Shown here piece by piece: positions 3,001 through 62,782 of a DNA stretch of 64,000 nucleotides. The notes below the pieces were generated by a model. That model did not search any database, was not told where the DNA came from, and saw nothing but the letters and a program-made list of their open reading frames with translations. Source of the DNA: a virus. How positions within the stretch are numbered: position 1 is the first letter of the stretch; each line of letters starts with the position of its first letter. The DNA is taken from positions 32,001 through 96,000 of the IMG/VR virus record IMGVR_UViG_3300044451_000434; one strand, given 5' to 3'. A program made the translations under genes and the position numbers.

Positions 3001-4163
3001 GTAAAAGAAGAACCCTGCATAGCCTGCACGGTATAAAGTTCGATATTGCCACTATTTGGCATCTTGATATCTTTAGATGTCCAAACAAAACCAAAGTTAC
3101 CGTTCTTGTGTATCCTTAAATAAAGATTATTCATGGGATCATATGGATCATATCCATCAACAGATATGGCAGATACTGAAAGATAAAAACTACCAAGTGG
3201 GTTTCTCAAAATGATGGCATCAATATCATCGACATCTCCAATTTGCGCAGCAGATGTTGGAACAAGATATTTGTTTACCGAAGCTGATGTCTTTCCGTAG
3301 ATTGACCTGTTATATATAGATACTCTATATCTAAATCCATTAATCAAATCTCTTATAATAAAATGTGATTTAGAGACAGGCACTTCAATAGAAAATTCAT
3401 CACCAACTTCATTCCCAAAAACATCCACCCGTCTCCAAGAGACAATTTTTTTATCAATCAACCCGGACGCAGACTTGTCAAAAACAACACAAATAGATGC
3501 ATTGTTTTCTACGGCGGCAACACCAGTTGGAATTGGCGGAATCACATCCGCAAATGGCCTACTTACTAATACTTCTTCCGAAAACAATCCAGGAGTGTCA
3601 TCACGTCCGAAAGCTTGCATCTTCAGAGATATGGAAGATCCTTCGCTAATCGGGTGCTGAAAAATATCATCAGATCTTGATATTTGTGCAACATAAATAT
3701 TATCAATGATCAGATATGCATATGATGTTGTTATAGAAGCTTCATTCCAATTAAAATAAATAAAAGCAAAATCGTCTGATACGTATGCATTAAAAGTTGG
3801 TGGGGATGCAGGAGATGCATCGTTAACAACAACTTTTCGGCTTGAAGAAAAATTACCAACCTTAGAAATCATATTGGTCTGCTTCTTCAAGAACACCCCC
3901 TCGCCAACATTTGGATATTGGCAATAGCGCTCAAGCATGAGCTGCGAAAAGATTCCGTTAATGAAAGCCGCACCGCTAGATATGAAAACATATTCACCAA
4001 TCAAACTAAAATCCAAACCGTATGCAACGCCATCACCAATAGCAGAATAAAATGCGTGCAACTGCTCGTCTATCATCATCATCCTGCTCTTATCAACGGT
4101 AGCAGAATATCTGTCCCCTCTTTCGAAGTATGGAAGTTGCAGTGATGGAGTTGGTCTAGTCAT
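1..4163 (-). CDS. Giant tail fibre/tail-tip protein with FN3-like array (partial, >1387 aa, runs off the left edge; missing from ORF track)
   Basis: ATG at 4163 overlaps the TGA of the 2726-aa gene (ATGA). Translates as MTRPTPSLQLPYFERGDRYSATVDKSRMMMIDEQLHAFYSAIGDGVAYG... The frame was spot-checked open at 1-60 and near 1320; an internal stop would have produced a listed ORF. Contains FN3-like units (DVIPPIPTGV...LINGFRYRVSIYNRS), an HxH motif (IAEHRH) and a fibre-like motif LSAGQLTSGTVSRGVIP. Confidence 0.8.
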   Translation of the reverse strand, partial: MTRPTPSLQLPYFERGDRYSATVDKSRMMMIDEQLHAFYSAIGDGVAYGLDFSLIGEYVFISSGAAFINGIFSQLMLERYCQYPNVGEGVFLKKQTNMISKVGNFSSSRKVVVNDASPASPPTFNAYVSDDFAFIYFNWNEASITTSYAYLIIDNIYVAQISRSDDIFQHPISEGSSISLKMQAFGRDDTPGLFSEEVLVSRPFADVIPPIPTGVAAVENNASICVVFDKSASGLIDKKIVSWRRVDVFGNEVGDEFSIEVPVSKSHFIIRDLINGFRYRVSIYNRSIYGKTSASVNKYLVPTSAAQIGDVDDIDAIILRNPLGSFYLSVSAISVDGYDPYDPMNNLYLRIHKNGNFGFVWTSKDIKMPNSGNIELYTVQAMQGSSFTTQYFEDKSTYTIVLFRKVGQSQTRGRFTRVISGDSTPPPPVVDISGFFSVGGSVRFNWAHQDPSDVSYYELSVVSYQIQERIEILNEDPSDSIYIARRYSGNMCDFNFTISGVTLRIQGVDDSNFTPVDGFSEVSFDLTDKNITDVIAFINYANIRMKSKVTGITYSMFQLIEARPAFSFWFNPALTRDGINISSPSLPAQKLAATSNARLADTSPILFRMGEFNSDITDDGTGGFFASGGIILQVKDSSASPTTYTYTTGQQIAQVSQKTKLRTYLLPSGLTKPKTKYSISIVAVDEYNNKSIASSFDLFSPFIDDMPAPGELDGVFSAVVQDGIMVTWNGKSRLPARKFLVYRSQVDSSGSLGPYGLIAEIDPSSYEYLDLMVLDGNSYSYRIGYENFWGARSMRPETYELEGKIGVLTTFVSRSENPGPTGLSSQFINDDYVLSWNEYTIPVDGFELYVSDPSTGRFSRVGSSDSKSKTYTLRNFKLANGEYRFAIRSIVSECSVVTAQITNPPDSSMLLFSRSQNGSLKDERRLLSNMIDPVVENAEELIAEHRHFRLDDNNDFRIDLSDLYLIDKYVSEDRLTYIPSSPIEVGIDPSHGVVFVNNSVTSVGYQIFGDGSINFVEELPDDSVVKSVVFGTSEVEGVLDGEQIGILSAGQLTSGTVSRGVIPSVNHDETFMDMLPMTCIMQSADNFRWFATVNERNKIRLYSESDSQYSEVAIELAGAEVDTHLGSVPSSFPISRGSARAFIHDMEFFGNIGFVASSVGSWMYKNTSDIGTIVEISSSLPPDDAGCPFRIRIFGDIVFIIAFRGIDMARIQADGNLTPLATGLGMQRGVKCFRDVIRIDDLNFIAVAANAIWKISIQLNSQIYFRQLPSISSEATLIWSCFSWNGLPYIYSEDGLFVGDSSGSEFSLLDNLPGRLKIIDTYIEQDFVLLIATNSIWRLDNSSVSKMFQSDIRLGRCAVHEDGLFVCSDDGLLRTNSDTNLRESDRY

Positions 4164-28064: not shown

Positions 28065-29123
28065 TCAGTTCAAAGCCTCCGACATTCGCTTTCTAACCGC
28101 AGCAAGCGAAAACATTTCTTCGGCCCTTTTTTTTGCATTTTTTGCCTTTTGGGATGCAATGTCATAGTATTTTTCAACAGCTTCAGCGACTGCCCTCCCC
28201 ACCGACTCCGATGTAATAACTGGCCAATATTTTGAAGAAAATTGCGGGTATCCATCCATAGAAGCCTGCTCCAAACCTGATGGTTCTATTACTAGACCGC
28301 AAGAATCGTCAAAAAAATCAGAAATTCCACCCGACCGTGTGCTCAACACGGGAACACCAGCCGCCATGGCCTGAGCAACGGGTAGACAAAATCCCTCACC
28401 CCTTGAAGCGCATAGAAAGGCGTGGCAAGACGAATACAGCCCTGCCATGCTTTTCTCCGTCAACTCACCCTCAACAATCATAAAACGGTTCCTAAGCGAT
28501 TCAGGCACGATCCTGACCACCTCCGCACGTGCGGCATGGGGTCTGTCTGTCTTTAAGACAAGACAAACCGGATGCCCGGCAGACATAGCGATAGAACATC
28601 CAAGAATTAGTGAAGACCAATTTTTTCTAGCTTTCCAAGCACCCACTGACAATATGACAAAATCGCCTCCATCATAACCCTTGGGATAGGAACGAAAATA
28701 TAGATCTCCGACCATGTGATTTATCACAGAAGATGGTTTTTCTACCCCCGCTTTTTCAAATACTGACTTACAAAACTTGCTTGGATACCAAATGTTGGAA
28801 CATTTTGAGTTTATAGTTTTTATCCAATCTGCAGGAGGATTTTCGCATTCAAATGTGCATATTCCCACCGTCATTTCCGAGCCCTGAGAGAGACCATTCC
28901 ATCTTGGCGGTATAGAGTGCCATATGCTCACTTGGGCGACTCCTGAAAAGTCATGCTGCAATGCTTGGGTGTCTTCATGCGACATCCATGGCTGATTTAT
29001 CATTGGATGCATACTTTTGACCCTAACCTTATGCCCACAAGACCTGAGCACATGTAAATAGCCAAGGGCGGCATGCCCGAACCCCGTGTTGTTTATGAAA
29101 CAGGCATATTCTACTTTAAGCAT
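28065..29123 (-). CDS. Glycosyltransferase, GT-B fold, family GT4 (352 aa)
   Basis: N-terminal TGFGHAA, ARKN, and C-terminal ASRGEGFCLPVAQAMAAGVPVLST (E-x7-E motif with Q at the second position). Confidence 0.9.
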   Translation of the reverse strand: MLKVEYACFINNTGFGHAALGYLHVLRSCGHKVRVKSMHPMINQPWMSHEDTQALQHDFSGVAQVSIWHSIPPRWNGLSQGSEMTVGICTFECENPPADWIKTINSKCSNIWYPSKFCKSVFEKAGVEKPSSVINHMVGDLYFRSYPKGYDGGDFVILSVGAWKARKNWSSLILGCSIAMSAGHPVCLVLKTDRPHAARAEVVRIVPESLRNRFMIVEGELTEKSMAGLYSSCHAFLCASRGEGFCLPVAQAMAAGVPVLSTRSGGISDFFDDSCGLVIEPSGLEQASMDGYPQFSSKYWPVITSESVGRAVAEAVEKYYDIASQKAKNAKKRAEEMFSLAAVRKRMSEALN

Positions 29124-49529: not shown

Positions 49530-50251
49530 ATCTCAGGAATGTCTCTAGTCGAATCCTGATCAGTATTGGGTAGTGCATATCTACTCAGAAGCGTGGGGTT
49601 GGCAAATCTGCTTGAGATTCTATTCTGACCATGAAGAACAGTTCTCCCATTCAATATATTGCTCAACATGATGCGTGCCTGATTTCTCAACCCTTTGCCA
49701 TATTCGCTGTTTCCAGTCGCGCTCATGTAAGAGAAGTACCTGTCAAATAGACTGGCGACACAGAGACGTGCTGATGTCCCCGGGACAGGATCGGGGAATT
49801 TCACGCGCAGCAATCGTGATTCTGCGGCTGAAAAATCCACCAAGAAAGGTTCATTGACGATGAGGTTTGTTCCGTTCGCAACATCAGCGACTGTTCTTCT
49901 CTCATTAATAAATCCATTTGTCAACACAATCACATCACCAGGAACGAATACATTTGCATTTGGACTCATGATGACAACATCTGTGTTGTAGGGATCAATG
50001 TCTACCACAAGTTCAAATTCCACATCACTTATCTCTCTCAGTGGAGTGCTGTACATGGAGCTCAAAATAGAGTTTATGTACTGGTCGGCGAGAACAATGT
50101 GCTGATCAAGAATCTCGTCGGTTATCACATTCCCCTTGAGCATGTTACCAAAGTTGACGAGATCGCCTTTCTGAGTGAGCGTTGGATCTGTTGCAGTCGT
50201 AAAAGACTGGGCAAAAACACGCTTGCAAAGGTCTCGCGTTGCATATCCCAT
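49526..50251 (-). CDS. Head-tail connector/adaptor (Mu gp36/DUF1320-like) with an inserted domain (241 aa)
   Basis: MGYAT start, ILDQHIVLADQYINSILSSMYSTPL, PVPGTSARLCVASLF, QARIMLSNILNG follow the gp36-like pattern. Confidence 0.65.
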   Translation of the reverse strand: MGYATRDLCKRVFAQSFTTATDPTLTQKGDLVNFGNMLKGNVITDEILDQHIVLADQYINSILSSMYSTPLREISDVEFELVVDIDPYNTDVVIMSPNANVFVPGDVIVLTNGFINERRTVADVANGTNLIVNEPFLVDFSAAESRLLRVKFPDPVPGTSARLCVASLFDRYFSYMSATGNSEYGKGLRNQARIMLSNILNGRTVLHGQNRISSRFANPTLLSRYALPNTDQDSTRDIPEM

Positions 50252-51423
50252 CAGACCTGATCCCTAGTTATAATTCCCTTGACAAGTCTATTCTTCACAA
50301 TCTGAGCAGATGTTAAAAGCCCAGAGCAAACCGCGTTTCGCGGGTCTGCAGCCTTGCGAACATCGCCAATTTTGAACGGCAAATTTATTGAAGACATGAT
50401 TCTTTCCAATTTCTTATCGAAACCGTTTGGCATAGAAGTGCCTCCGGCGATCACCACATCAAGAGGCTTATCAAACTGACTCTTAACTTCTGTAAACTTC
50501 TTAGCAAACAAACCCACGACATGACGGAGCATAGCATCGTAATATGCGTCAAGGGCAAAAGCTGTGTCATTGTCTTCGTCTATATTTTTAAAATCAAGAA
50601 CTCGCTCTTTGAAGTCAATCACCTGAGACATAGGTACTGCAGTCTGCTCTGAAACCTGTTTATCTACCCAATCTCCGCTCCTGCTGACAGACATACCAAG
50701 AACCTGCATGCCCTTGTATGCCAAAACGCAGTTTGCCCTACCAGCACCAAATGACATTCCTATTCCACTGAACGGCACTTCTGTACCGTCATCAAGAACA
50801 ACAGACGGCCTCTCGCTGAGGATGACAGCAAGACCTTCTTCTATGACCTTTACATTCCAGCCAAGGCGGGTAAACATGGCCTTGAGGCGAGCTGCATGGA
50901 AAGTACTGTCCTGCCCACCGTCAGCGCACGGACTCGACACGCATGTGCAAACAACGGAATTTTCGTCAGGGGCCTTACCAAGAGAAGATTCTATAATGCC
51001 AGAAAGAACCAAACTCTTCTTTGGTTCATCTCTATTGAGCACTCCATCTTGAAGAGGACGACGAATCTCCACCGAACCAGGAAATAACTTGGCAACCTGC
51101 ATGGAGTCATCTCCAACGACAAAATACTGCATTCCGTCGTTTACATATCTCCAGCCATTTCTAGTCAAGATCTCTTCCAATTCTGATGAATATGGGATTT
51201 CTACAAATGCGTTCCTGACCGCAGAGACGCTTATCTTGTCATCAATGAGCTCTGCTGTCTGAAAAAACATAGTTCCCACATCAACTCCCACTGCTCGGGC
51301 GTGTGACTCTTGCGCCTGTACCGATTCAGCCTTGTTGGCAGTTTGCACAGGGGTATTCGGATTCACTGACGACCGAAGCTTTAGGGAGGCAAAATTCTGC
51401 ATGGCTTTTTCCTTGGCACTCAT
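50251..51423 (-). CDS. Actin-like ATPase (volactin-like family, 390 aa)
   Basis: Phosphate-1 VGVDVGT, connect-1 IEEGLAV, phosphate-2 GMSFGAGRAN, GDWVD, adenosine VVIAGGTS, connect-2 DPRNAVCSG. Confidence 0.9.
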   Translation of the reverse strand: MSAKEKAMQNFASLKLRSSVNPNTPVQTANKAESVQAQESHARAVGVDVGTMFFQTAELIDDKISVSAVRNAFVEIPYSSELEEILTRNGWRYVNDGMQYFVVGDDSMQVAKLFPGSVEIRRPLQDGVLNRDEPKKSLVLSGIIESSLGKAPDENSVVCTCVSSPCADGGQDSTFHAARLKAMFTRLGWNVKVIEEGLAVILSERPSVVLDDGTEVPFSGIGMSFGAGRANCVLAYKGMQVLGMSVSRSGDWVDKQVSEQTAVPMSQVIDFKERVLDFKNIDEDNDTAFALDAYYDAMLRHVVGLFAKKFTEVKSQFDKPLDVVIAGGTSMPNGFDKKLERIMSSINLPFKIGDVRKAADPRNAVCSGLLTSAQIVKNRLVKGIITRDQV

Positions 51424-51950
51424 CAGAGAAGACCCTCCAATTCATCTAATTTTTTCTTCATATCGGACGCGTCCTTAGATTTGCCTTTTTGAGGTTCCAT
51501 ATTGGTGGAAAGATTAGACGCCATTCGTGAAACAACTTTTTCATGTATAGCTATAAGGTTTTCGGCTTGCGGCTCAGATATTGATTCTACAACATCAATC
51601 TTTTCAACCCGAGATGAAACATGAACAACTTGAGGGGCAGGCATGGAAGATAACATATTTTTTAGCTCTGCTAATGATTCTGCTATGGCAGATATGGCCT
51701 TGCCGTCATTTTCTTCTCTGACTATTTTTCTCAATACGTCCATGTCTATGGTATTCTGGCGCCCACGGCTAGAATCTTTTGCCACCACTCTCAGATACCC
51801 GGCGACCACGGCTTTCTTGACTGAAGGACTTGCCTCGACAATTCTCCTGTCAGCAACAATGTCAAGATCTATAGACTGACTTGGAGACAAAATGACCTTT
51901 AGGTCTCCAAGCGACAAATGCTGCCTAGTTGTATTTACTACCAAAAACAT
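51423..51950 (-). CDS. Hypothetical protein, putative actin adaptor (probable start MFLVVN at 51950, 175 aa)
   Basis: TGATG overlaps at both ends. Small N-terminal domain, short coiled coil, C-terminal amphipathic helix MKKKLDELEGLL. Confidence 0.6.
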   Translation of the reverse strand: MFLVVNTTRQHLSLGDLKVILSPSQSIDLDIVADRRIVEASPSVKKAVVAGYLRVVAKDSSRGRQNTIDMDVLRKIVREENDGKAISAIAESLAELKNMLSSMPAPQVVHVSSRVEKIDVVESISEPQAENLIAIHEKVVSRMASNLSTNMEPQKGKSKDASDMKKKLDELEGLL

Positions 51951-52165
51951 CAGCCCTGCAATCTGGTTCGCGGTAAAGGTTTGAAATTTTTTGATGGATC
52001 TACAATCATCGTCGAACTCTTTTTGCACGATGGACAAACCATGTGAATCGTGCCCTGTGAGAAGTTGATCTCCACGTTGCCACGAGCCGCCGTACTAGAG
52101 AAACACGCAGGACACACCACCCTGAACTCCTCAGACTCATGGACCACCTCCTCTGGTTTAGGCAA
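51950..52165 (-). CDS. Zinc-ribbon protein (71 aa, TTG start)
   Basis: CPAC...CPSC pairs; SD AGGAG upstream. Confidence 0.7.
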   Translation of the reverse strand: MPKPEEVVHESEEFRVVCPACFSSTAARGNVEINFSQGTIHMVCPSCKKSSTMIVDPSKNFKPLPRTRLQG

Positions 52166-54416
52166 GGAACAAACTCCTTGCCAATTTTAACATGCAACCC
52201 CTTACATCTTCGTGATTGCATTCTGCCTCTTTGACTAAGAACTCTTCATCTATAAATGCCATTCGGTCTCGAGCTCGATTTGCACTGCCTAGACCAGATA
52301 GCCGCCAAGCCTTGCTGTCTGGCTCTTCCCCAATGAAATTTATCAGTGCGACAGTTTCTGCATCACTAATGAAATGCGGTCTTAAGCTAAAAGCCAAGCT
52401 AGCAATCACTCTTGCAGCATCTCGGCTATCATTGTTTCTGCTAGTCGCCTTATTGAATGCTTCCACAAGAGCATTATCTAACTTATTCTGCTCTTGAGGA
52501 TCAGCATTTGTCAACGATTCTCGCCATGCCTCAATACTGAATGCATTAACAACCTGCTGCAGTTTTTCGTATATCAAATTATAGGCATTCGGCCCACTTT
52601 TTGGAATGCGCTCAACGGTTCTGTTCGTGTTGTCTTTCAACAACTGCGCCATACACTCAGCCATTTCTTTACTGCTGATGGCATCTTTGATCTGCTGCAC
52701 CTTCTCCTCAAAAGGAAGACTAGAAATTCTTGGAGCCAATTCGTGCACCAGTAATTGTTTGCAACGACGCTTAGCCTGTTCTTTTTTGGAAGGAGTTTTC
52801 GGTCGACTCTGCTGAAGACTGTGAAGGTCAGATTTGTCGTAATTATCAGGTGCGAATTTCATCCAATCTCTCGGAGGATCAGCCCTATTTACCCTAACAA
52901 TGGCATTCAAAACCTTAATGCCCCCATTAACATCACCACTTTGTGTGGTGATTACAATTTGACCGTGATTGTGGTTGACATACGCTGTCTTCTTTTTGTC
53001 AAACAGCGACTTTAGCATGGTCAGTGCAGGAATTGAATAGCCACGATTAGCAACATTCATAAGCGTATCAAACCTTCCGATGAGCCTGTCACGTGCTATC
53101 TTTGCATCTCCGAGAGACTCCTTAAAAATATTTTTCATAGGATTTACGGCCGCCTGCCTATCCTTCATCTGTTCAGCACCAATCGTATCAACGGAAAGTC
53201 TATCAAGTATGCCCTTCAAAGAGCTAATATGGGTGTCAAGTTTGATGGCGAGTTGATTTTTAAATTCTTCAAGAATTTTGATAGCTTTATCGTTGTATTC
53301 AGAAAGAGGCTGACGCTCAAGATTTTGAATTTCACTCTGAATGTAGACATCAAGATCTCTATCTCCGCCTTGCCTGTCCGCGATCATGTCAAGACCTCGC
53401 TGCTCATTTGCGTCTACTCCCATTGCAAGAGTAGAGTCGTACTCATCCCGCTCGAATCGATTGACTCCAATTTCACTCCGACGCTTGTCAATCACATATG
53501 CGAACATATGTGCAACCACATCTTCGTCGCCACCCTGCAGGAGATTTACAAGCCTGCATAGAAGCGTGATGCCAACAACATCAAAACTAGTTGATATTCC
53601 TTGCATCTGATCAATAGTTTTATTAGATATTGCATGAACATTTTTCTTTTTAGAACGATTTAATTCATCTTGGACACGCCGAGGCATCTTTTCACGATGC
53701 CCATCAAAAAAACTATATACAAAGTTTCCCTTAGATCTATGAAAATCAGAAACATCTATGACTGCTCTCCCTCTTTCAATATCATTTAAATATTCAAGAT
53801 ATTGAGGATCTGATCTTCTTTTAAACCAGTCAGTTCCCAAGCCATTCCTAACACATACTGCACGAGCAGCGCTTTGATGGTTGGCAAGAGCTTGCCTGCC
53901 GAATTCTGGCAAATCGCCTTTAGATACCACATCATTCAGATGTGCGATGATGCTTTGCAGGTCATCTTGTCCTTCAGGAAATGTTGAACATGGAGACTCG
54001 TCGTGATTTACATTCGGCACCTCTCTCATGTGCCTTAAGGGCGCGGCTCCGCCCCGAATAGGTTGGGAACCACGATCACCCTGTATGGACACCTCGGGGG
54101 TCTGCAACAACTCTTTTAAACATGTAAGATTGTCAGTTAAAACATCTCGTGCCGCTTCGAGAACATGTTCCTGATTCTCGAGACCATGAATTCTTTCAAA
54201 AGCATCCTCAATCAGGCTATTCAACTCCTGACTCCGAACATCAACATGCTTAGTATGATCATCGGAAGCCCGCTGCATGGCGTCGACCACTTCAGTCAGG
54301 TATTTGTACAATTTATCGTTGCGATTCTTGATCAAATTAAGCTTCTGGGTCACCGATTCGCAAGCACCAAATGCGGTTTTTTGCAATTTCTGTGAAAACA
54401 TGATATACTTTTCCAT
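52158..54416 (-). CDS. Large helical hypothetical protein (probable start MEKYIM at 54416, 752 aa)
   Basis: Charged and helical, with an N-terminal coiled coil. The track's start at 54488 lies inside a hairpin. Confidence 0.6.
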   Translation of the reverse strand: MEKYIMFSQKLQKTAFGACESVTQKLNLIKNRNDKLYKYLTEVVDAMQRASDDHTKHVDVRSQELNSLIEDAFERIHGLENQEHVLEAARDVLTDNLTCLKELLQTPEVSIQGDRGSQPIRGGAAPLRHMREVPNVNHDESPCSTFPEGQDDLQSIIAHLNDVVSKGDLPEFGRQALANHQSAARAVCVRNGLGTDWFKRRSDPQYLEYLNDIERGRAVIDVSDFHRSKGNFVYSFFDGHREKMPRRVQDELNRSKKKNVHAISNKTIDQMQGISTSFDVVGITLLCRLVNLLQGGDEDVVAHMFAYVIDKRRSEIGVNRFERDEYDSTLAMGVDANEQRGLDMIADRQGGDRDLDVYIQSEIQNLERQPLSEYNDKAIKILEEFKNQLAIKLDTHISSLKGILDRLSVDTIGAEQMKDRQAAVNPMKNIFKESLGDAKIARDRLIGRFDTLMNVANRGYSIPALTMLKSLFDKKKTAYVNHNHGQIVITTQSGDVNGGIKVLNAIVRVNRADPPRDWMKFAPDNYDKSDLHSLQQSRPKTPSKKEQAKRRCKQLLVHELAPRISSLPFEEKVQQIKDAISSKEMAECMAQLLKDNTNRTVERIPKSGPNAYNLIYEKLQQVVNAFSIEAWRESLTNADPQEQNKLDNALVEAFNKATSRNNDSRDAARVIASLAFSLRPHFISDAETVALINFIGEEPDSKAWRLSGLGSANRARDRMAFIDEEFLVKEAECNHEDVRGCMLKLARSLFLA

Positions 54417-54451
54417 AAATAGTATTTCTGACTTGTTGCGACCTATCCTTG

Positions 54452-54497
54452 TGCGGAGGTGTGGGGCAGAAAACGAACCCCGCCCCACACCGCCGCA
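54452..54497 (-). terminator. Strong GC-rich hairpin just after phoH (terminator or mRNA-stabilising stem)
   Basis: Plus strand TGCGG-A-GGTGTGGGGC (14-nt loop) GCCCCACACC-G-CCGCA: 15 bp with one mismatch. No U-tract. Confidence 0.55.
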
Positions 54498-54503
54498 GTG
54501 ATG

Positions 54504-55193
54504 TCAGTTTTTTTCCTTGTATTTGAGGTCTATCTTAGAAACAAGACCATGTCGCTGGCAAGATTCTGGGGGGAATTGGAAACGACTAATCCCATCCACG
54601 CTCTTGAGCCTTCTAAGAGCATCTGTCAAGCCATTCCTAGACGACCTGCAATCTAGATCGCACTGGAATTCGTCACCTGCGACAACTGCTTTAGATGATT
54701 TACCAAGCCTAGTGAGGAAAAGGTGCATCTGCTCAGGAGTGCTGTTTTGCGCCTCGTCCATGATCATGAAAGTGTTTTCAAAAGTGACGCCACGCATGAA
54801 GGCAAGAGGGAGTATTTGAATTTCATCAGATGCCATCATTCTGCTAGCCGTGCTCTTCCCAAGAATTTTCTCCATAATCATCCTGATTGGAGCAACAAAA
54901 GGATCGAACTTTTGCTCAAGAGATCCAGGAAGGTATCCTAGTCTTTCGCCAGCGCTCACGTAAGGACGTGTAAGAATAATTTTGCTTATTCGTTTTTCAC
55001 TCAACATCCGCAAAGCCATGCCAGTGGCAATTGTTGTTTTTCCTGTACCCGCCATTCCATATAACATGGTCACTGCGCTGTCCTCAATTATTTTCACAGC
55101 TTGCCTCTGATGTTCATCAAGTGGCTTGAATGCTATATGGGACCCAGGACGACTGCTCTCAATCAACTGCTTGCGCTTGGACTTGTTGCTCAT
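54504..55193 (-). CDS. phoH: PhoH-family ATPase (229 aa)
   Basis: Walker A GMAGTGKT, LGYLPG, LAFMRG, DEAQN, LTRLG, GD..QCD, QRHGLV. Confidence 0.95.
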   Translation of the reverse strand: MSNKSKRKQLIESSRPGSHIAFKPLDEHQRQAVKIIEDSAVTMLYGMAGTGKTTIATGMALRMLSEKRISKIILTRPYVSAGERLGYLPGSLEQKFDPFVAPIRMIMEKILGKSTASRMMASDEIQILPLAFMRGVTFENTFMIMDEAQNSTPEQMHLFLTRLGKSSKAVVAGDEFQCDLDCRSSRNGLTDALRRLKSVDGISRFQFPPESCQRHGLVSKIDLKYKEKN

Positions 55194-55615
55194 GTCGCTT
55201 TTCCTCCCAATGTTAAGATGACAAAATCAGACGAACGAGAATCACGGCGGCACACAACACCATCCGTGAGCATCGCAACATATAAAGAGTCCACATCCTC
55301 CATACGCGATACGATTTCGTCCCAAACGGGCGAAGGGAGGCGGATACGCCTCCCTTCAAGCAACTGTAGTCTTATTTTTATTGGATTGAAGTTTGTCAAA
55401 GACTCAACCTGCACCAAAAAGTTGTCAAATTCATTAGCCAATTCCAACTGCCAAAAACCAGATTCGTCTCTTGATCGTCTCAACTGGTTTATCTGCTCGT
55501 CTCCCATACACTCTCGTAGATAGGCCAACTGATCTGCATTAAGCAGACGAGTCAATCTGCAAAATTCTGGATATGATTCAAAAATAGGTTCGTCTTTAGC
55601 TTTTTTTCTTTTCAT
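55190..55615 (-). CDS. Hypothetical protein (probable start MKRKK at 55615, 141 aa)
   Basis: ATGA overlaps on both sides. Confidence 0.55.
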   Translation of the reverse strand: MKRKKAKDEPIFESYPEFCRLTRLLNADQLAYLRECMGDEQINQLRRSRDESGFWQLELANEFDNFLVQVESLTNFNPIKIRLQLLEGRRIRLPSPVWDEIVSRMEDVDSLYVAMLTDGVVCRRDSRSSDFVILTLGGKAT

Positions 55616-55908
55616 GCTTGGATGTTTATGGGAGCGTTGAGCATGATATGGCACATGTTCAACACATGGGTGGTATCCGCGTCTGCTTCACCAGCAGCGA
55701 ACTTAACCAACAACCCGTTTTCAAGAGCAATACCCCTCCCTGAAAGCAAAGTGTTTCTGAAATTTTTGGGCATCCTATTCACTGCAGGATCATCACCATT
55801 GATGATATAATTCTTCATCTCTTCAGTAGCAAGGGCGTAGAAGAAACAATCACCATCCCCTGCAACCTTGTCAAGCAACTCTCGCAAAACTTTCTTGTTT
55901 ACGATCAT
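55612..55908 (-). CDS. Hypothetical protein (probable start MIVNKK at 55908, 98 aa)
   Basis: ATGA overlap with the upstream stop; contains VAGDGDCFFYAL. Confidence 0.55.
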   Translation of the reverse strand: MIVNKKVLRELLDKVAGDGDCFFYALATEEMKNYIINGDDPAVNRMPKNFRNTLLSGRGIALENGLLVKFAAGEADADTTHVLNMCHIMLNAPINIQA

Positions 55909-56903
55909 ACACCACCACCTGTAAATATGTATCTGAACCATCTGCTCCTGCCGCCAGGTAGAGCGTATTCAGGAGTGACAATATTTCTAGTCTTGGGATA
56001 TGGACCAAGTTTCTTGCCATCCAAGAAGCCTTTAACGCTCTCTTCATAATTCTTTTTCAAAGTGTCTAGGCTGCTCGAAAGATTTGAAGCACGCTCAGCA
56101 CTACCAAAAACAAGTTGCGGCTCCTGAAAAGTTAAAGACAGCATAATTTCTCTCATTGCATCTGCTGCAGCGCCGTAAAGAACAGCCGGGACAATCTCGC
56201 ATGGCACTGAAGCAAGACTGTAATTGCTTCTAGGCGGGTAAAAATTAAACCTGCCAAGAGCATTCGCCAAAAATCTGTACAGTTGATCATCGGAAAACCA
56301 TCTGAAATTGTAGTCGGCATTCACAATGTCATATGATGTAAATGGCGTGTTAAAAGTAACTGTACCACGAAAATAATTCGTAGAAAAGCCATCGTCTACG
56401 ATGTTGTTGTTCCTATAGATTCTGACGCCTGCTGACTGATTCCACCTCGGAAAAGAAAACGCAAAAGTGGCGTTGTCTTTTGACGGACGACCCTGCTCAA
56501 AATACACAGGTATGTTCATGGTTGGTCTTATGTGATATTCAAGAGCAACTATAAGATCCCTAATCTGCCCAAAATAAACACTTTCTGGATCGGGCCTCTC
56601 ATTTATGACAACCTCTTGAGTAATCGTGTTTATTCCAACACCATCATCATATGACCAGGTTAAATCCCATCGACCCACTTCTGCATCAGATGCAACCGAC
56701 CATATGTATGCATAATAACCATCAGATATGGTGATTGCAACATCTCCATCGACATCAACCTCTCCAGACGGACTGGTCAGAGTGACAGACACATCGGTGG
56801 CTGCGACAGGCTGAGAATTGAGAGATGTCAATCTCAGAAACAAACTGTTTGAAGTGCCTTGGGTAAATGTTCCTTGAGACTCTGTCGATTGACTTAGTGC
56901 CAT
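55905..56903 (-). CDS. Neck/head-completion protein with N-terminal Ig-like domain (332 aa)
   Basis: Ig-like VSVTLTSPSG...GYYAYIW...GRWDLTW. C-terminal adaptor-like FSDDQLYRFLANALGRFNFYPP...AVLYGAA. Confidence 0.55.
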   Translation of the reverse strand: MALSQSTESQGTFTQGTSNSLFLRLTSLNSQPVAATDVSVTLTSPSGEVDVDGDVAITISDGYYAYIWSVASDAEVGRWDLTWSYDDGVGINTITQEVVINERPDPESVYFGQIRDLIVALEYHIRPTMNIPVYFEQGRPSKDNATFAFSFPRWNQSAGVRIYRNNNIVDDGFSTNYFRGTVTFNTPFTSYDIVNADYNFRWFSDDQLYRFLANALGRFNFYPPRSNYSLASVPCEIVPAVLYGAAADAMREIMLSLTFQEPQLVFGSAERASNLSSSLDTLKKNYEESVKGFLDGKKLGPYPKTRNIVTPEYALPGGRSRWFRYIFTGGGV

Positions 56904-57676
56904 CAGAATTTCCTCAAGTCTTGCGAGGTTCTGCCTGTTGATGTTACTTCAATACGGCCAGGAATACCTGCCCGAGAAACCTGAACACCCGGCATCGGAG
57001 AGCCAAACCCAACAACTGCTCCAGAGGGAGCTTCAAAACACAAGGCATACATTCCGGATTTTACTGCCACCGCCATAGCATCATTCAATTCATTAAACCT
57101 CAAAGATCCGTATGGAGGATTGTAGGAAACCCGCTTGAGTTCTTGAGTAGTTCTGAGAGCCGCATCTACCATACGCAATGACACCCTGCTAACCTGTGCA
57201 GTTGATGCTCCTGCAGAAACCTTTGCGTATACAACTTTTTCATTGAAAGGATAGAACACAGATGCAGATCCGACCCTAGCTCCAGACATGAAAAAGTTGT
57301 CAAGCCTACTGCTCTCTTCAGATAGAAAGGCTCGCAAAGCAACCTGCGAAGGATCATCACCGCGAAGAGCCACGCCAAGAATTGGATCCCACAACAACTC
57401 TTCGTGAGACAAAAGCAGATCATCAACTGCTGGCGAAACTCCCATCCTTTCATAGATGCAAACATTTACCCTGTCATTTTTAATTCCGTCAGCCTTTATT
57501 GAAGCACCGTACATCGGGAAACGAAGCAATTCTAAAGAGATAACTGCAGAAGCATGCGTTATGGTAGATGAAAAAATACCTGAAGATGGATTGAGCTTTA
57601 GACCATCTTCTGATGTGCAGATACAGTAAAAAACAGATTGTCTTGGTGCAATAAATCTCACCGGAAATGATGGCAT
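56903..57676 (-). CDS. Hypothetical protein (257 aa)
   Basis: Tightly packed in the operon; TGATG overlap with the next gene. Confidence 0.55.
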   Translation of the reverse strand: MPSFPVRFIAPRQSVFYCICTSEDGLKLNPSSGIFSSTITHASAVISLELLRFPMYGASIKADGIKNDRVNVCIYERMGVSPAVDDLLLSHEELLWDPILGVALRGDDPSQVALRAFLSEESSRLDNFFMSGARVGSASVFYPFNEKVVYAKVSAGASTAQVSRVSLRMVDAALRTTQELKRVSYNPPYGSLRFNELNDAMAVAVKSGMYALCFEAPSGAVVGFGSPMPGVQVSRAGIPGRIEVTSTGRTSQDLRKF

Positions 57677-57679
57677 GAC

Positions 57680-58441
57680 TTATATTTCCATCATTTTATT
57701 GACTATGCCTCTTGAATCCATATCGGAACTAGCAGCAATAATATTTGCAGCAACACCAGCAACAAAAGCATTGGCAAAACTAGAGCCTATAGAATCCATA
57801 AATCTGTCTCCAACGGTCATGGTATCATATGTCCAATTAGGCATGGTTATCTTGATCCCGTCAGCAGATGGGGATTTAACTTCGCCTACTGCGACTGAAA
57901 TAACTCCAGAAGCCGAAGACGGGAAGGCATAAGAACGCGTATCAGAAACCGCAGAAAATATCAATATTTCTTTTGCAAGCAATTTTTTAATCACTTCTGA
58001 AGCGAGATGCTCTTCTTCAGAAGATGTTAGGCTGCAAACCACAATATCGCACCTTGAAGCCATGCACCACAAAAGTCCTCCGACAAGAGCAGATATATCT
58101 CCCGACCTGTCAGACTTTGCACACTTGGCGTGAAAGAAAGTGGCTTCATGACAAAGACCAGGAATACCTGAGGCATGAGATGAAGATAAAATGCCCGATA
58201 CAGAAGTGCCGTGACCATCTCGGTCATATGGCTCTTCGCCATTAACCATACTAACCTGCCTACTCTGATTGTTTAACTTGATATCTCTATGTGTGGGAGC
58301 ACCCGTGTCTACTATTCCGATTTTGAGACCTGAACAGTCAGTTCTTTCCACCCTAAATCCTCCATGTGCTGGCAGCACAACCTGTCTGACTCTAGGTGAT
58401 ATCCTAAGTCTTCCATCTGGAGGGGAATCACCCAACACCAT
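57680..58441 (-). CDS. Subtilisin-like serine protease, S8 (probable start MVLGD at 58441)
   Basis: Triad motifs IGIVDTG, DGHGTSVSGIL, GSSFANAFVAGVAA. SD GAGGAG upstream of 58441. Confidence 0.85.
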   Translation of the reverse strand: MVLGDSPPDGRLRISPRVRQVVLPAHGGFRVERTDCSGLKIGIVDTGAPTHRDIKLNNQSRQVSMVNGEEPYDRDGHGTSVSGILSSSHASGIPGLCHEATFFHAKCAKSDRSGDISALVGGLLWCMASRCDIVVCSLTSSEEEHLASEVIKKLLAKEILIFSAVSDTRSYAFPSSASGVISVAVGEVKSPSADGIKITMPNWTYDTMTVGDRFMDSIGSSFANAFVAGVAANIIAASSDMDSRGIVNKMMEI

Positions 58442-59153
58442 CGGACACAATCTCCTCTTCAACCATTTCTACAAAACTAAAAACAGGGCTACAAGATCTT
58501 GAAGACCTGAGCAGAAGGGCTCTTCCACCACCCGAAGCACAGCCCCATGCACACACAGGATCATCTGTAACCAAAGCAGAGACGGTTCTGCTCTCTTCAA
58601 TTCTCTTCACTAAACTCTTGCGAACAGGCACATGCCAAAGTCTGCCTGTCTCAAAAAATTTTGACTTTACAGCCATGCGAAGGGAGTCATTGGAGATTGA
58701 AACACCCTGCCTGTCATGCATTTTTGTAGAAAACTTGGTGTGGAAACTTGGCAGGACAACATCATCAATATGAAATGCCTTAGACAAAGAATACAGAATA
58801 GGTTGCCCCTCAAGATATGCAGAAAGTATATGAGAAAACCTTGCCTCTGTTGCCACTATAGATGCACCATCAAGAACCAAGCCATAGGCGCCAAGACTTA
58901 ACGCATGACGACAGTCAACCACGGAGTCAGAAACGCACACAATCTCATCAAACTGATCCCTAGAAATAGTGTGCAGATGAGCAAAATATGGCTTACCGGG
59001 AAGAATTTTTTGAAGTCCGTCCTCCCATCCAGCTGAGGATGAAATTGTGAATTCACACTGTCCACCATAGATGCGCTTCATGATTTGAAGCAATGAAGAA
59101 GTTACAAGTATCCCCCATTCAGATGGAGATGGAATCAGGCATATTTTTTTCAT
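58428..59153 (-). CDS. Divergent GT9 (heptosyltransferase)-like protein (241 aa)
   Basis: MKKICLI...GILVTSSLLQIMKRIYG, FDEIVCV and ALVTDDPVCAWGCASGG echo GT9 motifs (GDV...P..ALK..YP; lvtNDsG.mHiAaa). Confidence 0.45.
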   Translation of the reverse strand: MKKICLIPSPSEWGILVTSSLLQIMKRIYGGQCEFTISSSAGWEDGLQKILPGKPYFAHLHTISRDQFDEIVCVSDSVVDCRHALSLGAYGLVLDGASIVATEARFSHILSAYLEGQPILYSLSKAFHIDDVVLPSFHTKFSTKMHDRQGVSISNDSLRMAVKSKFFETGRLWHVPVRKSLVKRIEESRTVSALVTDDPVCAWGCASGGGRALLLRSSRSCSPVFSFVEMVEEEIVSDGVG

Positions 59154-59154
59154 G

Positions 59155-59742
59155 TCATAGCCTTATTTCGGCTGCGTTTCTGATCCCGCTAGGTAAAATA
59201 TCATCATCTGTTCCTGTGTCAACATCATCTTTCCTTCGTATGGAGCCTCGAGATTTCCTACTTGCTTTTTGAGCCTCTTTCTTGAGTTTTAATTGCTCAC
59301 TGTGCGCCTGACGCATAACTGACAATTCTTGCCCAGACAACCTAACGAGATGACCCGAAGATATCAGAGACAGAATCTGAGCAGGAATATCACCATATTC
59401 TTTTTTGATGAATGATGCAGATTTTCCGTCTATTTTGCCATCAAACTTTAAAGGAGGCTGCAACTTGCTCAATATCAAACATCCATCTTTGGCAGGAGCT
59501 ATAAAGTCTTTTTCTTGCGACACCTGAGTATCAAGAGAGACAACTCTAGAAATAGCAGGATTAGACTGCGGGACAGATACGGTTCCAAGAACTAACTCTT
59601 TGAGAGTAATCAGGCCGCCATCAACTACGGCAGGCACGTTCATCAACTCTGGATGAACCATTACCCTATCGATTGGGAGAGAATAGACTTTTTCTCCCAT
59701 AAACACAACCCTGCCAAAATCTCTGTCGTAAAATGCTTTCAT
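59155..59742 (-). CDS. Hypothetical protein (probable start MKAFYD at 59742, 195 aa)
   Basis: ATGA overlap with the GT stop; basic then acidic C-terminal tail. Confidence 0.55.
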   Translation of the reverse strand: MKAFYDRDFGRVVFMGEKVYSLPIDRVMVHPELMNVPAVVDGGLITLKELVLGTVSVPQSNPAISRVVSLDTQVSQEKDFIAPAKDGCLILSKLQPPLKFDGKIDGKSASFIKKEYGDIPAQILSLISSGHLVRLSGQELSVMRQAHSEQLKLKKEAQKASRKSRGSIRRKDDVDTGTDDDILPSGIRNAAEIRL

Positions 59743-61085
59743 AATTTTGTTACCAAGCCTTTGAATTGCGAAACAACGGCGTCCGCAGAGCACATGTCAG
59801 CCAATTTTGACGCTGCTCTTGAAGCCATCAAGTTTCTCTTTTTAGGGGATGTAGACCAACATATTCTCATGGACGCACCAAGTCTTTGAATAAATTCTAC
59901 ACTCACCGTATCCGCCATGACGGTGCCATCCCATAAAATTGTACCAGTTGTACCATTTTTAATAGTTGTCCTGTCAACATCGACCAAAAATGCTGAAGAA
60001 TCATCAAGGAAATCAAGTTGACCACCAAACCTTGGAGCAACTGAAGGTATCCCGCACATGGCTGCTTCTGCATACGGAAGACAAAATCCTTCTCCCCTTG
60101 CAGCTAGAACGCATGCATCTACAGACCTGTACAACTTGGCAAGATCTGCTTCAGTAATGTTTTTAGACATTCTGACCACGAGTGGAGGATGCTTTTTGCC
60201 ACAACTTGACACCAAATCAGAAACCACATCTGCGAATTTTTTTTGAGCTTCTTCTCCGCGCTTGTCTCTATGCGCCACGATGAGACATACATCATCTGAT
60301 GGATCAAATTCCTTAAGAAATGACTCAATTACATTGGTGCCAACCTTTCTAGAGCTAATTCCAAATATAGTTAAAAACTTGAAACTTGGCAATGGAGATG
60401 AGAATTGATATTCTGCTCCTTTTGCACAAAAAATGTCATTATTAATGTGTGGACTCAAAACTCCCGCGTCAATATCATACTTCCCAAAAGTGTCACAGCA
60501 GAATCTACTTACACACCAAACCATTTCATATTTCTTTGCAGAAGCTGCAACAGCAACAGGCAGAGTTTCTGACTCGATAGTAGTGTAGAGCACCCTCATG
60601 CCAGATGGACCTGGAGAGCCAAATGTGGGTACCACACTATTTATATCAAGCATGCCTTGGCATCTTGGCCTTATGGGCAGTCCGCATCTTGCATCTTCGT
60701 ACAAAAGCTGTGGTTTCCCAAGGTCTACTGGGTCAACACTTACTGAAATGTTTTTTGTAGTAAGTGCTTTGACCAAACCTCTATTGACCTTTCCATATCC
60801 TGAATAGTCTAAAAACTGGCCTCTGATTACGACATCATCAAGCATGGCATCACCAGATGGCTTCTTTGCTTTCGCTGACATTTTTGCCAATGCTGCCTGT
60901 ATCCCATCGGCTTGGTCATGATCCAACACAACCACATAACCCTTTGCAACAGCCGAACGAAGAGATGGCGCTGATCTAACACGATCTGATGATATCTCAA
61001 ATTTATCACCACTATCACCAGCAGGGATGCGATCATCCCATTCGGGAACATATACAGGTATGCCAAGGACATTTCTTACTATCAT
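59739..61085 (-). CDS. Glycosyltransferase GT4 with extra N-terminal domain (probable start MIVRNV at 61085, 448 aa)
   Basis: SGYGKVNR, YTTIESETLP, SSRK and AARGEGFCLPYAEAAMCGIP (intact E-x7-E). Confidence 0.9.
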   Translation of the reverse strand: MIVRNVLGIPVYVPEWDDRIPAGDSGDKFEISSDRVRSAPSLRSAVAKGYVVVLDHDQADGIQAALAKMSAKAKKPSGDAMLDDVVIRGQFLDYSGYGKVNRGLVKALTTKNISVSVDPVDLGKPQLLYEDARCGLPIRPRCQGMLDINSVVPTFGSPGPSGMRVLYTTIESETLPVAVAASAKKYEMVWCVSRFCCDTFGKYDIDAGVLSPHINNDIFCAKGAEYQFSSPLPSFKFLTIFGISSRKVGTNVIESFLKEFDPSDDVCLIVAHRDKRGEEAQKKFADVVSDLVSSCGKKHPPLVVRMSKNITEADLAKLYRSVDACVLAARGEGFCLPYAEAAMCGIPSVAPRFGGQLDFLDDSSAFLVDVDRTTIKNGTTGTILWDGTVMADTVSVEFIQRLGASMRICWSTSPKKRNLMASRAASKLADMCSADAVVSQFKGLVTKL

Positions 61086-61856: not shown

Positions 61857-62726
61857 TCAGGTGGTGGTGGGATCCACGGTGATGACGGACACGGCATAGT
61901 CGTTCATGACCACGATGCCGACCTCCTCATAGATCACCCAGCCAAGACGCAGCTTCTTTGGATCATCGGCGGGAAGGACAGTGATGTCCTGGCGGATGGG
62001 GAATGCGCCAACGGTGTCTGGGCTAGCAGTGACGATAATCTTGGTGTCATCGAGCTGGCTTGACACATGGATGTCAGCCGTCCACAGGTGACCGTAAAGA
62101 CCAGTGGTGAGGATCTCACGGGTGGTGGCCTCATCATAGAAGTCCTTTCCAAAGCTGCGGACTGCTGAGTAAGACTCAGGATGCATGACCACCTTTGAGG
62201 CCACCAGATCGTGGGTCTCAATATACTTGTAGGCAGTGTTCAAAGACGCAGTCTCCAAAGTGCCCACATTGGTGATCTCCTGAGCTGCTGGAGCAGCAGC
62301 AATCAGAGCGTTGAAGATGTTGCGATCCTCTTCCTTCTGGATTGCCTCCTTTGCCTTGATCTGTGCACGGTCAACGATGTAGAAGCGACGTGCTTTGATC
62401 TCGGACAGACGGATGGTGGGGTGTGCTGCAATCTCGAAGGTGGGGACAAGAACTTCCTCTCCCTCGGTGATCTGATCAGGCACTGCACCCTGACGGGCAA
62501 CGATTGTGGCCACGGAGGCAACATCGCGCTCGTAGCGGGGAAGAGCGCCTTGGGGGAGCTCGTCCACCATCAGGAGCTTGCGACCGACGGCCTGGTACTC
62601 CAGGGAACGCCGAATCGGCTCCACCATCGCTTGAGCAAGGGCAACACGCCCCTCCTCGGTCGACAAGGCCTGTGCAATCACGGCCTCTTTCTCGTCGTAA
62701 GTCAAACCATCTTTGTTGATGCTCAT
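61857..62726 (-). CDS. Major capsid protein, HK97 fold (probable start MSINKD at 62726, 289 aa)
   Basis: GRKLLMVDELPQG, VPTFEIAAHPTI, AIQKEEDRNIFNAL, KVVMHP, GLYGHLWTADIHVS, LGWVIYEEVG. SD AAAGGA; followed by a terminator. Confidence 0.9.
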   Translation of the reverse strand: MSINKDGLTYDEKEAVIAQALSTEEGRVALAQAMVEPIRRSLEYQAVGRKLLMVDELPQGALPRYERDVASVATIVARQGAVPDQITEGEEVLVPTFEIAAHPTIRLSEIKARRFYIVDRAQIKAKEAIQKEEDRNIFNALIAAAPAAQEITNVGTLETASLNTAYKYIETHDLVASKVVMHPESYSAVRSFGKDFYDEATTREILTTGLYGHLWTADIHVSSQLDDTKIIVTASPDTVGAFPIRQDITVLPADDPKKLRLGWVIYEEVGIVVMNDYAVSVITVDPTTT

Positions 62727-62741
62727 TGTGTTTTTCCTTTC

Positions 62742-62782
62742 TCCGACACCCCCTGATTCACGCATCAGGGTGGTAGGTCGGA
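62742..62782 (-). promoter_or_regulatory. Bulged stem-loop in the capsid gene 5' leader, ending 1 nt before the SD
   Basis: mRNA TCCGAC-ct-ACC-a-CCCTGAT-gcgtga-ATCAGGG-GGT-GTCGGA: 16 bp with two bulges. Confidence 0.6.

Follow-up and report, generated by a model that had tools for sequence, protein, structure and literature searches.

Adaptors of the ParR type, which serve the actin-like protein ParM, bind the actin-like filament through a short C-terminal tail. The genes for YqbF, for the DUF2635 proteins and for the 'LEM-like' proteins lie in head/neck modules. In nucleus-forming jumbo phages, the PhuZ tubulin spindle is a filament proposed to move capsids (reviews PMC8314001 and PMC7950403). 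For the salactin gene, poor synteny of the surroundings has been reported (PMC10746226). Here we describe a domain of about 58 residues that stands at the N-terminus of two otherwise unrelated proteins of a giant phage, namely a glycosyltransferase of the GT4 type encoded in the capsid module (GT4 B) and a small protein (A) whose gene adjoins that of an actin-like ATPase. Both genes lie in a stretch of 64,000 nucleotides (positions 32,001 to 96,000 of IMG/VR record IMGVR_UViG_3300044451_000434), which is called the window below. Coordinates are positions in the window unless marked as outside it, and all features of this genome given with coordinates are on the minus strand, which carries nearly all genes. 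An earlier note on the window had proposed that the domain is a modular address shared by A, GT4 B and a third protein of 195 amino acids (C). Literature searches on DUF2635, on gp158 of phage G and on volactin, salactin and the actin-like filaments of phages found no description of such an adaptor or domain.

A domain common to the N-termini of A and GT4 B

Gene A (51423-51950) encodes 175 amino acids from the ATG at 51950, comprising the domain, a variable linker and a conserved C-terminal tail. The domain copy covers residues 1-58 (51777-51950). GT4 B (59739-61085) begins with a copy at residues 1-59, counted from the Met at 61085 (60909-61085), followed by a linker of about 30 amino acids and by the GT4 body from about residue 104. 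Within the open reading frames (ORFs), these start residues are Met14 for GT4 B (61085) and Met30 for A (51950), and the homologues of A, which are 175-180 amino acids long, start at the same Met.

In a single pairwise comparison by BLASTP, the two segments were 35% identical over 40 residues, with an expectation value (E) of 1e-5. When the segments of A, GT4 B and C were used one by one as phmmer queries against all ORFs of the genome, only self-matches were found, and the similarity between A and GT4 B was not significant genome-wide. Family profiles were built from the orthologues in 11 related IMG/VR loci together with database homologues. The profiles of the A family and the GT4 family aligned over 56 columns with an hhalign probability of 92.7% and an E of 4.3e-7, against an E of 0.64 in the reversed-sequence control. 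When the 1810 ORFs of the 164-kb genome were searched, the A profile found GT4 B as its best non-self match (E 0.07), and reciprocally the GT4 profile found A (E 0.02). Furthermore, a profile rebuilt from 148 database matches, nearly all of the A type, recovered the GT4 at E 1e-4. In the joint alignment Met1 and Asn6 are invariant, and a pattern of Asp, Pro, Ser, Lys/Arg and Gly is common to both families.

The AlphaFold2 (AF2) model of the A domain, made from a 16-sequence alignment, had a predicted local distance difference test score (pLDDT) of 93.3 and is composed of five strands and three helices. The strands are at residues 2-6, 12-14, 19-21 and 26-28, the helices at 29-32, 35-39 and 42-50, and the final strand at 53-58. 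The invariant Asn is located at the end of the first strand, and a Gly precedes the last one. The earlier note had suggested a superposition of predicted structures. Against the representatives of the ESM Atlas, the A-domain model fits the N-terminus of a 452-residue protein that stands for a viral GT4 cluster of 290 members, with a template modelling (TM) score of 0.77 (by query) and a root mean square deviation of 1.8 Å over 59 residues. These results establish that the N-termini of A and GT4 B are copies of a single real domain, about 58 residues long and as yet without a name, and the resemblance that had been aligned by eye is real and lies where it had been placed.

The domain is matched by no Pfam or PHROG family, and no Pfam family is common to the members of the domain alignment. 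With the Pfam hidden Markov models (HMMs) of DUF2635 and DUF7444, nothing in the genome was matched at E<=1. For A, Pfam and PHROG scans found nothing, and none of 50,697 phage records was matched when A was used as a tblastn query.

The enzyme part of GT4 B scores above the curated cut-offs of two family HMMs at residues 317-383, with 31.8 bits for Glyco_trans_1_4, where the cut-off is 27, and 29.6 bits for Glycos_transf_1, where it is 26.4. The protein also matches phrog_2170, and its gene comes a few genes downstream of that of the major capsid protein (MCP). A further GT4 in the tail cluster (28065-29123) served as a negative comparison. Its residue 9 aligns with GT4 B from residue 104 onward (E 4e-20) and the domain profile does not match it, in agreement with the earlier statement that this enzyme lacks the domain. 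In one domain-bearing GT4 among the database homologues (P0163, 898 amino acids), the GT4 body is interrupted by an intein that contains a LAGLIDADG endonuclease.

Breadth of the family and a further carrier

An exhaustive profile search was made over 1.84 billion representatives, with clusters at 50% identity and E<=1e-3, and 323 clusters were found to carry the domain, which defines a new, widespread family named in no current database. Of the 150 clusters listed, nearly all have the start of the domain at residue 1 or close to it. Some 125 of these 150 are proteins of 160-260 amino acids in which the domain is followed by a linker and a C-terminal ELEGLL tail, and most of the remainder are GT4 fusions. 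The long members are either such fusions, one of them with an intein, or extended forms of the tailed protein, and one repetitive protein looks spurious. In the seven related records with enough intact sequence, as well as in this genome, there is exactly one domain-bearing ORF of about 180-220 amino acids and exactly one of about 450-495. The tree of the domain copies (63 columns) did not resolve, and a single origin of the GT4 fusion is neither shown nor excluded by it.

Outside the window, the joint profile detected a protein of 173 amino acids (D; G000:C1:109766-110284, corresponding to L012:5766-6284) with E 0.002 among the 1810 ORFs. D contains two tandem copies of the domain. When its own family alignment was compared with the joint profile of A and GT4 B by hhalign, the first half matched with a probability of 92% (E 6.4e-7) and the second half with 57%; the two halves matched each other at 47%, and all reversed controls had E >= 0.19. 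A basic linker is also present in D, the motif ...IFG-x-MNTE at its C-terminus is invariant, and its gene is two genes downstream of that of the large terminase TerL (phrog_2, E 1.5e-25). Pfam and PHROG scans of D found nothing, and in the feature search of the ESM Atlas its best score was 0.77, below the usable level. Every carrier found belongs to a morphogenesis block of the head, the packaging or the neck, with positions downstream of the MCP, ahead of a Mu gp36-like connector and two genes past TerL.

Several other records were inspected. One related record (G004, locus L007), a fragment with 14% completeness, has neither the domain nor the actin. A joint loss cannot be claimed for it, because the fragment is so incomplete and the cassette is more than 20 kb away in another relative. 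In another (G007, IMGVR_UViG_3300045125_000158, locus L010), only truncated domain matches and a broken actin gene were found. This actin gene, at about 57240-58134 of the record, is split, with two in-frame TGA codons, possibly by assembly errors, decay of the cassette or TGA recoding. A protein upstream of actin in the huge phage LR745208 shows a similar pattern and was rejected as a carrier (hhalign 7.6%); the domain profile had no match in LR745208 or LR756511. In LR756511.1, a 595-kb uncultured phage, a GT9-like protein (1667-2671; sub-threshold, E 0.008) is encoded directly upstream of a volactin-like actin (2914-3933), which would be another case of a glycosyltransferase gene beside an actin gene in a huge phage.

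The cassette of A and the volactin-like actin

The gene following A (50251-51423) encodes an actin-like ATPase of the volactin family, and its start overlaps the stop of A. The protein matches PF25216 with 195.9 bits (cut-off 35) over profile positions 2-321 of 321. On the other side, directly upstream, A is joined by a TGATG overlap to the gene of a 71-residue Zn-ribbon protein (51950-52165), which has two CxxC pairs and weak matches to Zn-ribbon Pfam families. The order of Zn-ribbon, A, actin and gp36-like genes is kept in the relatives. The gene next downstream of an A-type gene encodes a volactin-like actin in all relatives and in six of six further, more distant contexts, in three of which the contig covers only the first 50-100 residues of the gene after A. 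From this strict adjacency, the small protein and the actin form a conserved cassette.

The very C-terminus of A reads K-L-D-E-L-E-G-L-L (51426-51452). This tail is kept across about 125 clusters at 50% identity with the consensus N-[IV]-[DS]-E-L-[ED]-[GND]-L-L, and it is a candidate filament-docking peptide. A single co-fold was made with full-length A and the actin, both supplied as alignments. The score was 0.39 (runs of 0.00, 0.39 and 0.43) against 0.01 for the best control, and no interface was reported; the runs agreed in at least 0% of contacts, with a partner pLDDT of at least 50. The mark used for such co-folds is reached by 58 of 80 solved complexes and by 2 of 110 mismatched pairs; those that reach it with scores of 0.60 or under are only seven of the 80 solved complexes and both passing mismatches. 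The co-fold is thus weak support from modelling, which raises the odds that A binds the actin. We infer the label 'actin adaptor' for A from the strict adjacency, the conserved C-terminal tail and this one weak co-fold.

The domain in Bacillus phage G

The whole record is a viral contig of 164,107 bp with a CheckV completeness of 39%. The MCP shares 50.5% identity with gp27 of Bacillus phage G, the nearest relative of the lineage in culture, and the related record IMGVR_UViG_3300020429_000529 is a complete genome of 498,568 bp with terminal repeats; from these two observations, the source is a phage-G-like giant phage. In phage G itself, gp158 was the top Foldseek match of the domain among viral models (E 2.8e-4, TM score 0.75). 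The first 60 residues of gp158 matched the domain profile with an hhalign probability of 92.9% and E 3.6e-7, and when all six frames of the phage G genome were searched with the domain profile, gp158 was the sole match (E 1.3e-4). The protein has the same N-terminal domain as A and a region that looks loosely syntenic, with an Ig-like (immunoglobulin-like) protein and PhoH nearby, but it has a Lys/Glu-rich tail in place of the ELEGLL tail. The complete phage G genome differs from the present lineage also in that no actin-like gene and no GT4 fusion was detected. The actin profile gave no match there, in a search that had no internal positive control, and gp159, which adjoins gp158, is not actin-like. 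Because the complete phage G genome has the domain and no match to the actin profile, the partner of the domain is probably not actin.

The phage G block consists of the domain protein gp158, the uncharacterised 419-residue gp159, the Ig-like gp160, the PhoH protein gp162 and gp163, which has a similar predicted fold. As a carrier of the domain, gp163 was rejected; its structural match in BFVD was accompanied by an hhalign probability of 6%.

Protein C

Gene C (59155-59742) encodes 195 amino acids from the ATG at 59742, which overlaps the stop of GT4 B as ATGA. The earlier note had named a segment of C (59338-59508) as a weaker third copy of the domain. At the sequence level, this proposal was not supported. 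BLASTP of the C segment against those of A and GT4 B gave no match, hhalign of the C family against the joint profile of A and GT4 B gave a probability of 3.3% with E 0.013, which is not significant, and in the search of the genome ORFs the C profile matched neither A nor GT4 B. Pfam and PHROG scans of C found nothing. The AF2 model of C (11 sequences) is confident exactly in the claimed segment, residues 80-135, with a pLDDT of about 91. Three strands (80-83, 88-91 and 98-101) lead there to two helices (109-116 and 121-129) and one more strand (132-135), after which a long helix follows. The order of the elements is the same as in the domain, ending in the same 'helix, Gly, strand'. In addition, about 15 of the top 50 weak PDB neighbours are common to the C segment and the A domain, at the same chain ranges, and include 2dfi_A, 8oxg_A, 8ouw_D, 2hjq, 8t19_A, 2q8k_A, 7pfo_G, 4ipa_A, 3anw_A and 5ghr_B. 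From these models, the segment is possibly a remote third copy, or else a convergent small fold, and D is the better supported third carrier. The address proposal is supported in so far as the segment is a separate domain that can be carried at the very N-terminus of proteins otherwise unrelated, and the third carrier that it named is doubtful.

In each relative with the GT4, the gene of C comes immediately behind that of the enzyme, and C is kept even in locus L007, where the GT4 was not found.

Possible function of the domain

We consider that the domain may be an address module for recognition between proteins, by which different payloads would come to share one partner while the head is assembled, and we put the probability of this reading at about 0.4. 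It is the best reading on three grounds, namely that the carriers lie in head, packaging or neck blocks, that phage G has the domain without an actin, and that A is built with two ends. The notion of a portable address is modestly strengthened by the strict co-occurrence of the small-protein and GT4 copies and by this two-ended build. The leading guess for the partner, from gene context only, is a head-assembly intermediate, i.e., the capsid, the portal or the packaging complex. The earlier note had favoured the capsid surface, which is one candidate addressee among several; nothing points to it specifically. If the address exists, the N-terminal domain of A would be the cargo-binding end and its conserved C-terminal tail would engage the actin-like filament. 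By analogy with the ParR-type adaptors, the tail would be the likelier filament binder and the folded domain the cargo binder. In GT4 B, the domain would keep the enzyme at this target as well, and the target would plausibly be the substrate that it glycosylates.

Several observations weigh against a shared address. Binding of the domain to any partner is neither shown nor predicted, and the weak co-fold of A with the actin does not say which end of A touches the actin. In a genome fragment that is largely structural, gene context is weak evidence for a capsid partner. Two architectures and a few divergent carriers are a narrow base for a general address. Moreover, the copies in A and the GT4 are 24% identical and no closer within one genome than between genomes, and hence nothing suggests that they co-evolved with a variable partner common to both.

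The last point fits an explanation without any common external partner, in which a stable N-terminal fold, possibly self-associating, was spread by duplication and fusion among proteins specific to the lineage and does a different job in each protein. Similar small alpha/beta domains are common in uncharacterised phage proteins (in BFVD many of 50-120 amino acids, with TM scores of 0.6-0.75), the copies in the same genome share only about 24% identity, and neither a resolved tree nor coupled evolution was seen. However, across hundreds of clusters and in either architecture the domain stays at the extreme N-terminus, the two families have a handful of conserved positions in common (the invariant Met1 and Asn6, together with the pattern of Asp, Pro, Ser, Lys/Arg and Gly), and the two kinds of copies strictly co-occur. 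We consider this explanation the strongest of the rivals to a shared address, though rather unlikely. That the resemblance between GT4 B and A arose by chance between two short beta-rich segments is hardly credible. The single-sequence searches, which were not significant at the genome scale, would allow it, but the E of 4.3e-7 against 0.64 for the reversed control, the reciprocal best matches, the independent structural match to the Atlas GT4 model and the recovery of GT4 fusions at E 1e-4 by a profile dominated by the small-protein family all speak for homology.

It is also conceivable that the domain binds the actin-like filament itself, with the GT4 and D as passengers or regulators and with the ELEGLL tail binding something else. 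In every context examined, the gene of the tailed small protein immediately precedes that of the actin, and the weakly positive co-fold of whole A with the actin (0.39 against 0.01, no interface) leaves room for the domain as the contact. But phage G has the gp158 domain together with no match to the actin profile and a gp159 that is not actin-like, and A has in its short C-terminal tail a second, equally conserved candidate for binding actin, which makes direct filament binding by the domain rather improbable. Recognition of nucleic acid, for example packaged or replicating DNA or an RNA, in place of a protein surface draws on the weak fold neighbours, which include modules like the N-domain of ribosomal protein L9 and winged-helix-like modules, and on D, with its strongly basic linker and its place near the terminase; we give this reading little weight.

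Returning to the shared address, a more specific version of it concerns transport or positioning by the actin. A would tether a head-assembly intermediate, be it procapsid, portal or packaging complex, to the volactin-like filament via the ELEGLL tail, and the GT4 and D would share the address. In this full form the scheme is speculative, and we consider it improbable. If true, it would be an actin counterpart of the capsid trafficking driven by PhuZ, coupled to virion glycosylation. In any case, the giant phages related to phage G have a Zn-ribbon, small protein and actin cassette within their head/neck genes, and the 58-residue domain can be used as a bait for what the filament system acts on. 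The same approach would bear on a possible physical coupling of virion glycosylation and cytoskeleton-based organisation.

Gene order around the carriers

The MCP gene (61857-62765; phrog_2522, E 2.4e-66) is located 0.7 kb upstream of that of the GT4. Read along the minus strand, it is followed by GT4 B, the 195-residue C, a protein of 241 amino acids and an S8 subtilase, and then by two unknown head-module proteins, PhoH, a protein of 776 amino acids, the 71-residue Zn-ribbon protein, A, the volactin-family actin and the Mu gp36-like connector. The gene order of this region from capsid to connector is conserved in the related loci. The gene of the Peptidase_S8 (subtilisin-type) protease (57680-58462), inside the head module, is kept in the relatives, and the family is unusual for a head-module protease.

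Comparison with known systems

The cassette of A resembles that of the ParR-type adaptors (of ParM; also AlfB and Alp7R) in that A adjoins the gene of an actin-like ATPase, has a folded N-terminal domain and ends in a short conserved C-terminal tail. In contrast to these systems, the gene of A is upstream of its actin and not downstream, the N-terminus of A is a five-stranded alpha/beta fold (AF2 pLDDT 93.3) and not a ribbon-helix-helix, and the cassette lies in a block for head/neck morphogenesis, with the N-terminal domain of A common to an enzyme. No centromere-like iterated repeats were found around the cassette, where the genes overlap and only short two-copy matches inside coding sequence are seen. 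Since both the ribbon-helix-helix and the centromere are missing, the cassette is ParR/ParM-like in layout but fails two defining features of that system.

With the N-terminal domain of YqbF (PDB 2hjq, from a B. subtilis prophage), with DUF2635 and with the 'LEM-like' proteins, the domain has in common that it is small and strand-rich, with a helix before the last strand. The entry 2hjq was the top Foldseek match of the A domain in the PDB, a weak resemblance, and similar viral models are present in BFVD. The recognition elements of RiPPs (ribosomally synthesized and post-translationally modified peptides) and the capsid-targeting sequences of phage T4 are analogous in the way they work only, each being an N-terminal element that brings an enzyme or a cargo to a target.

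The PhuZ spindle is likewise a phage-encoded cytoskeletal filament, and the model for it runs parallel to the idea of the earlier note that ties the actin and glycosylation modules to the head. It differs in being tubulin-based and in belonging to a different phage family, and transport by the present volactin-like cassette would be hypothetical. To our knowledge, no adaptor that shares a domain with an enzyme is known in the PhuZ system. By comparison with these systems, the new element here would be that the adaptor of an actin-like filament has at its cargo end a domain without a name that also occurs in an enzyme.

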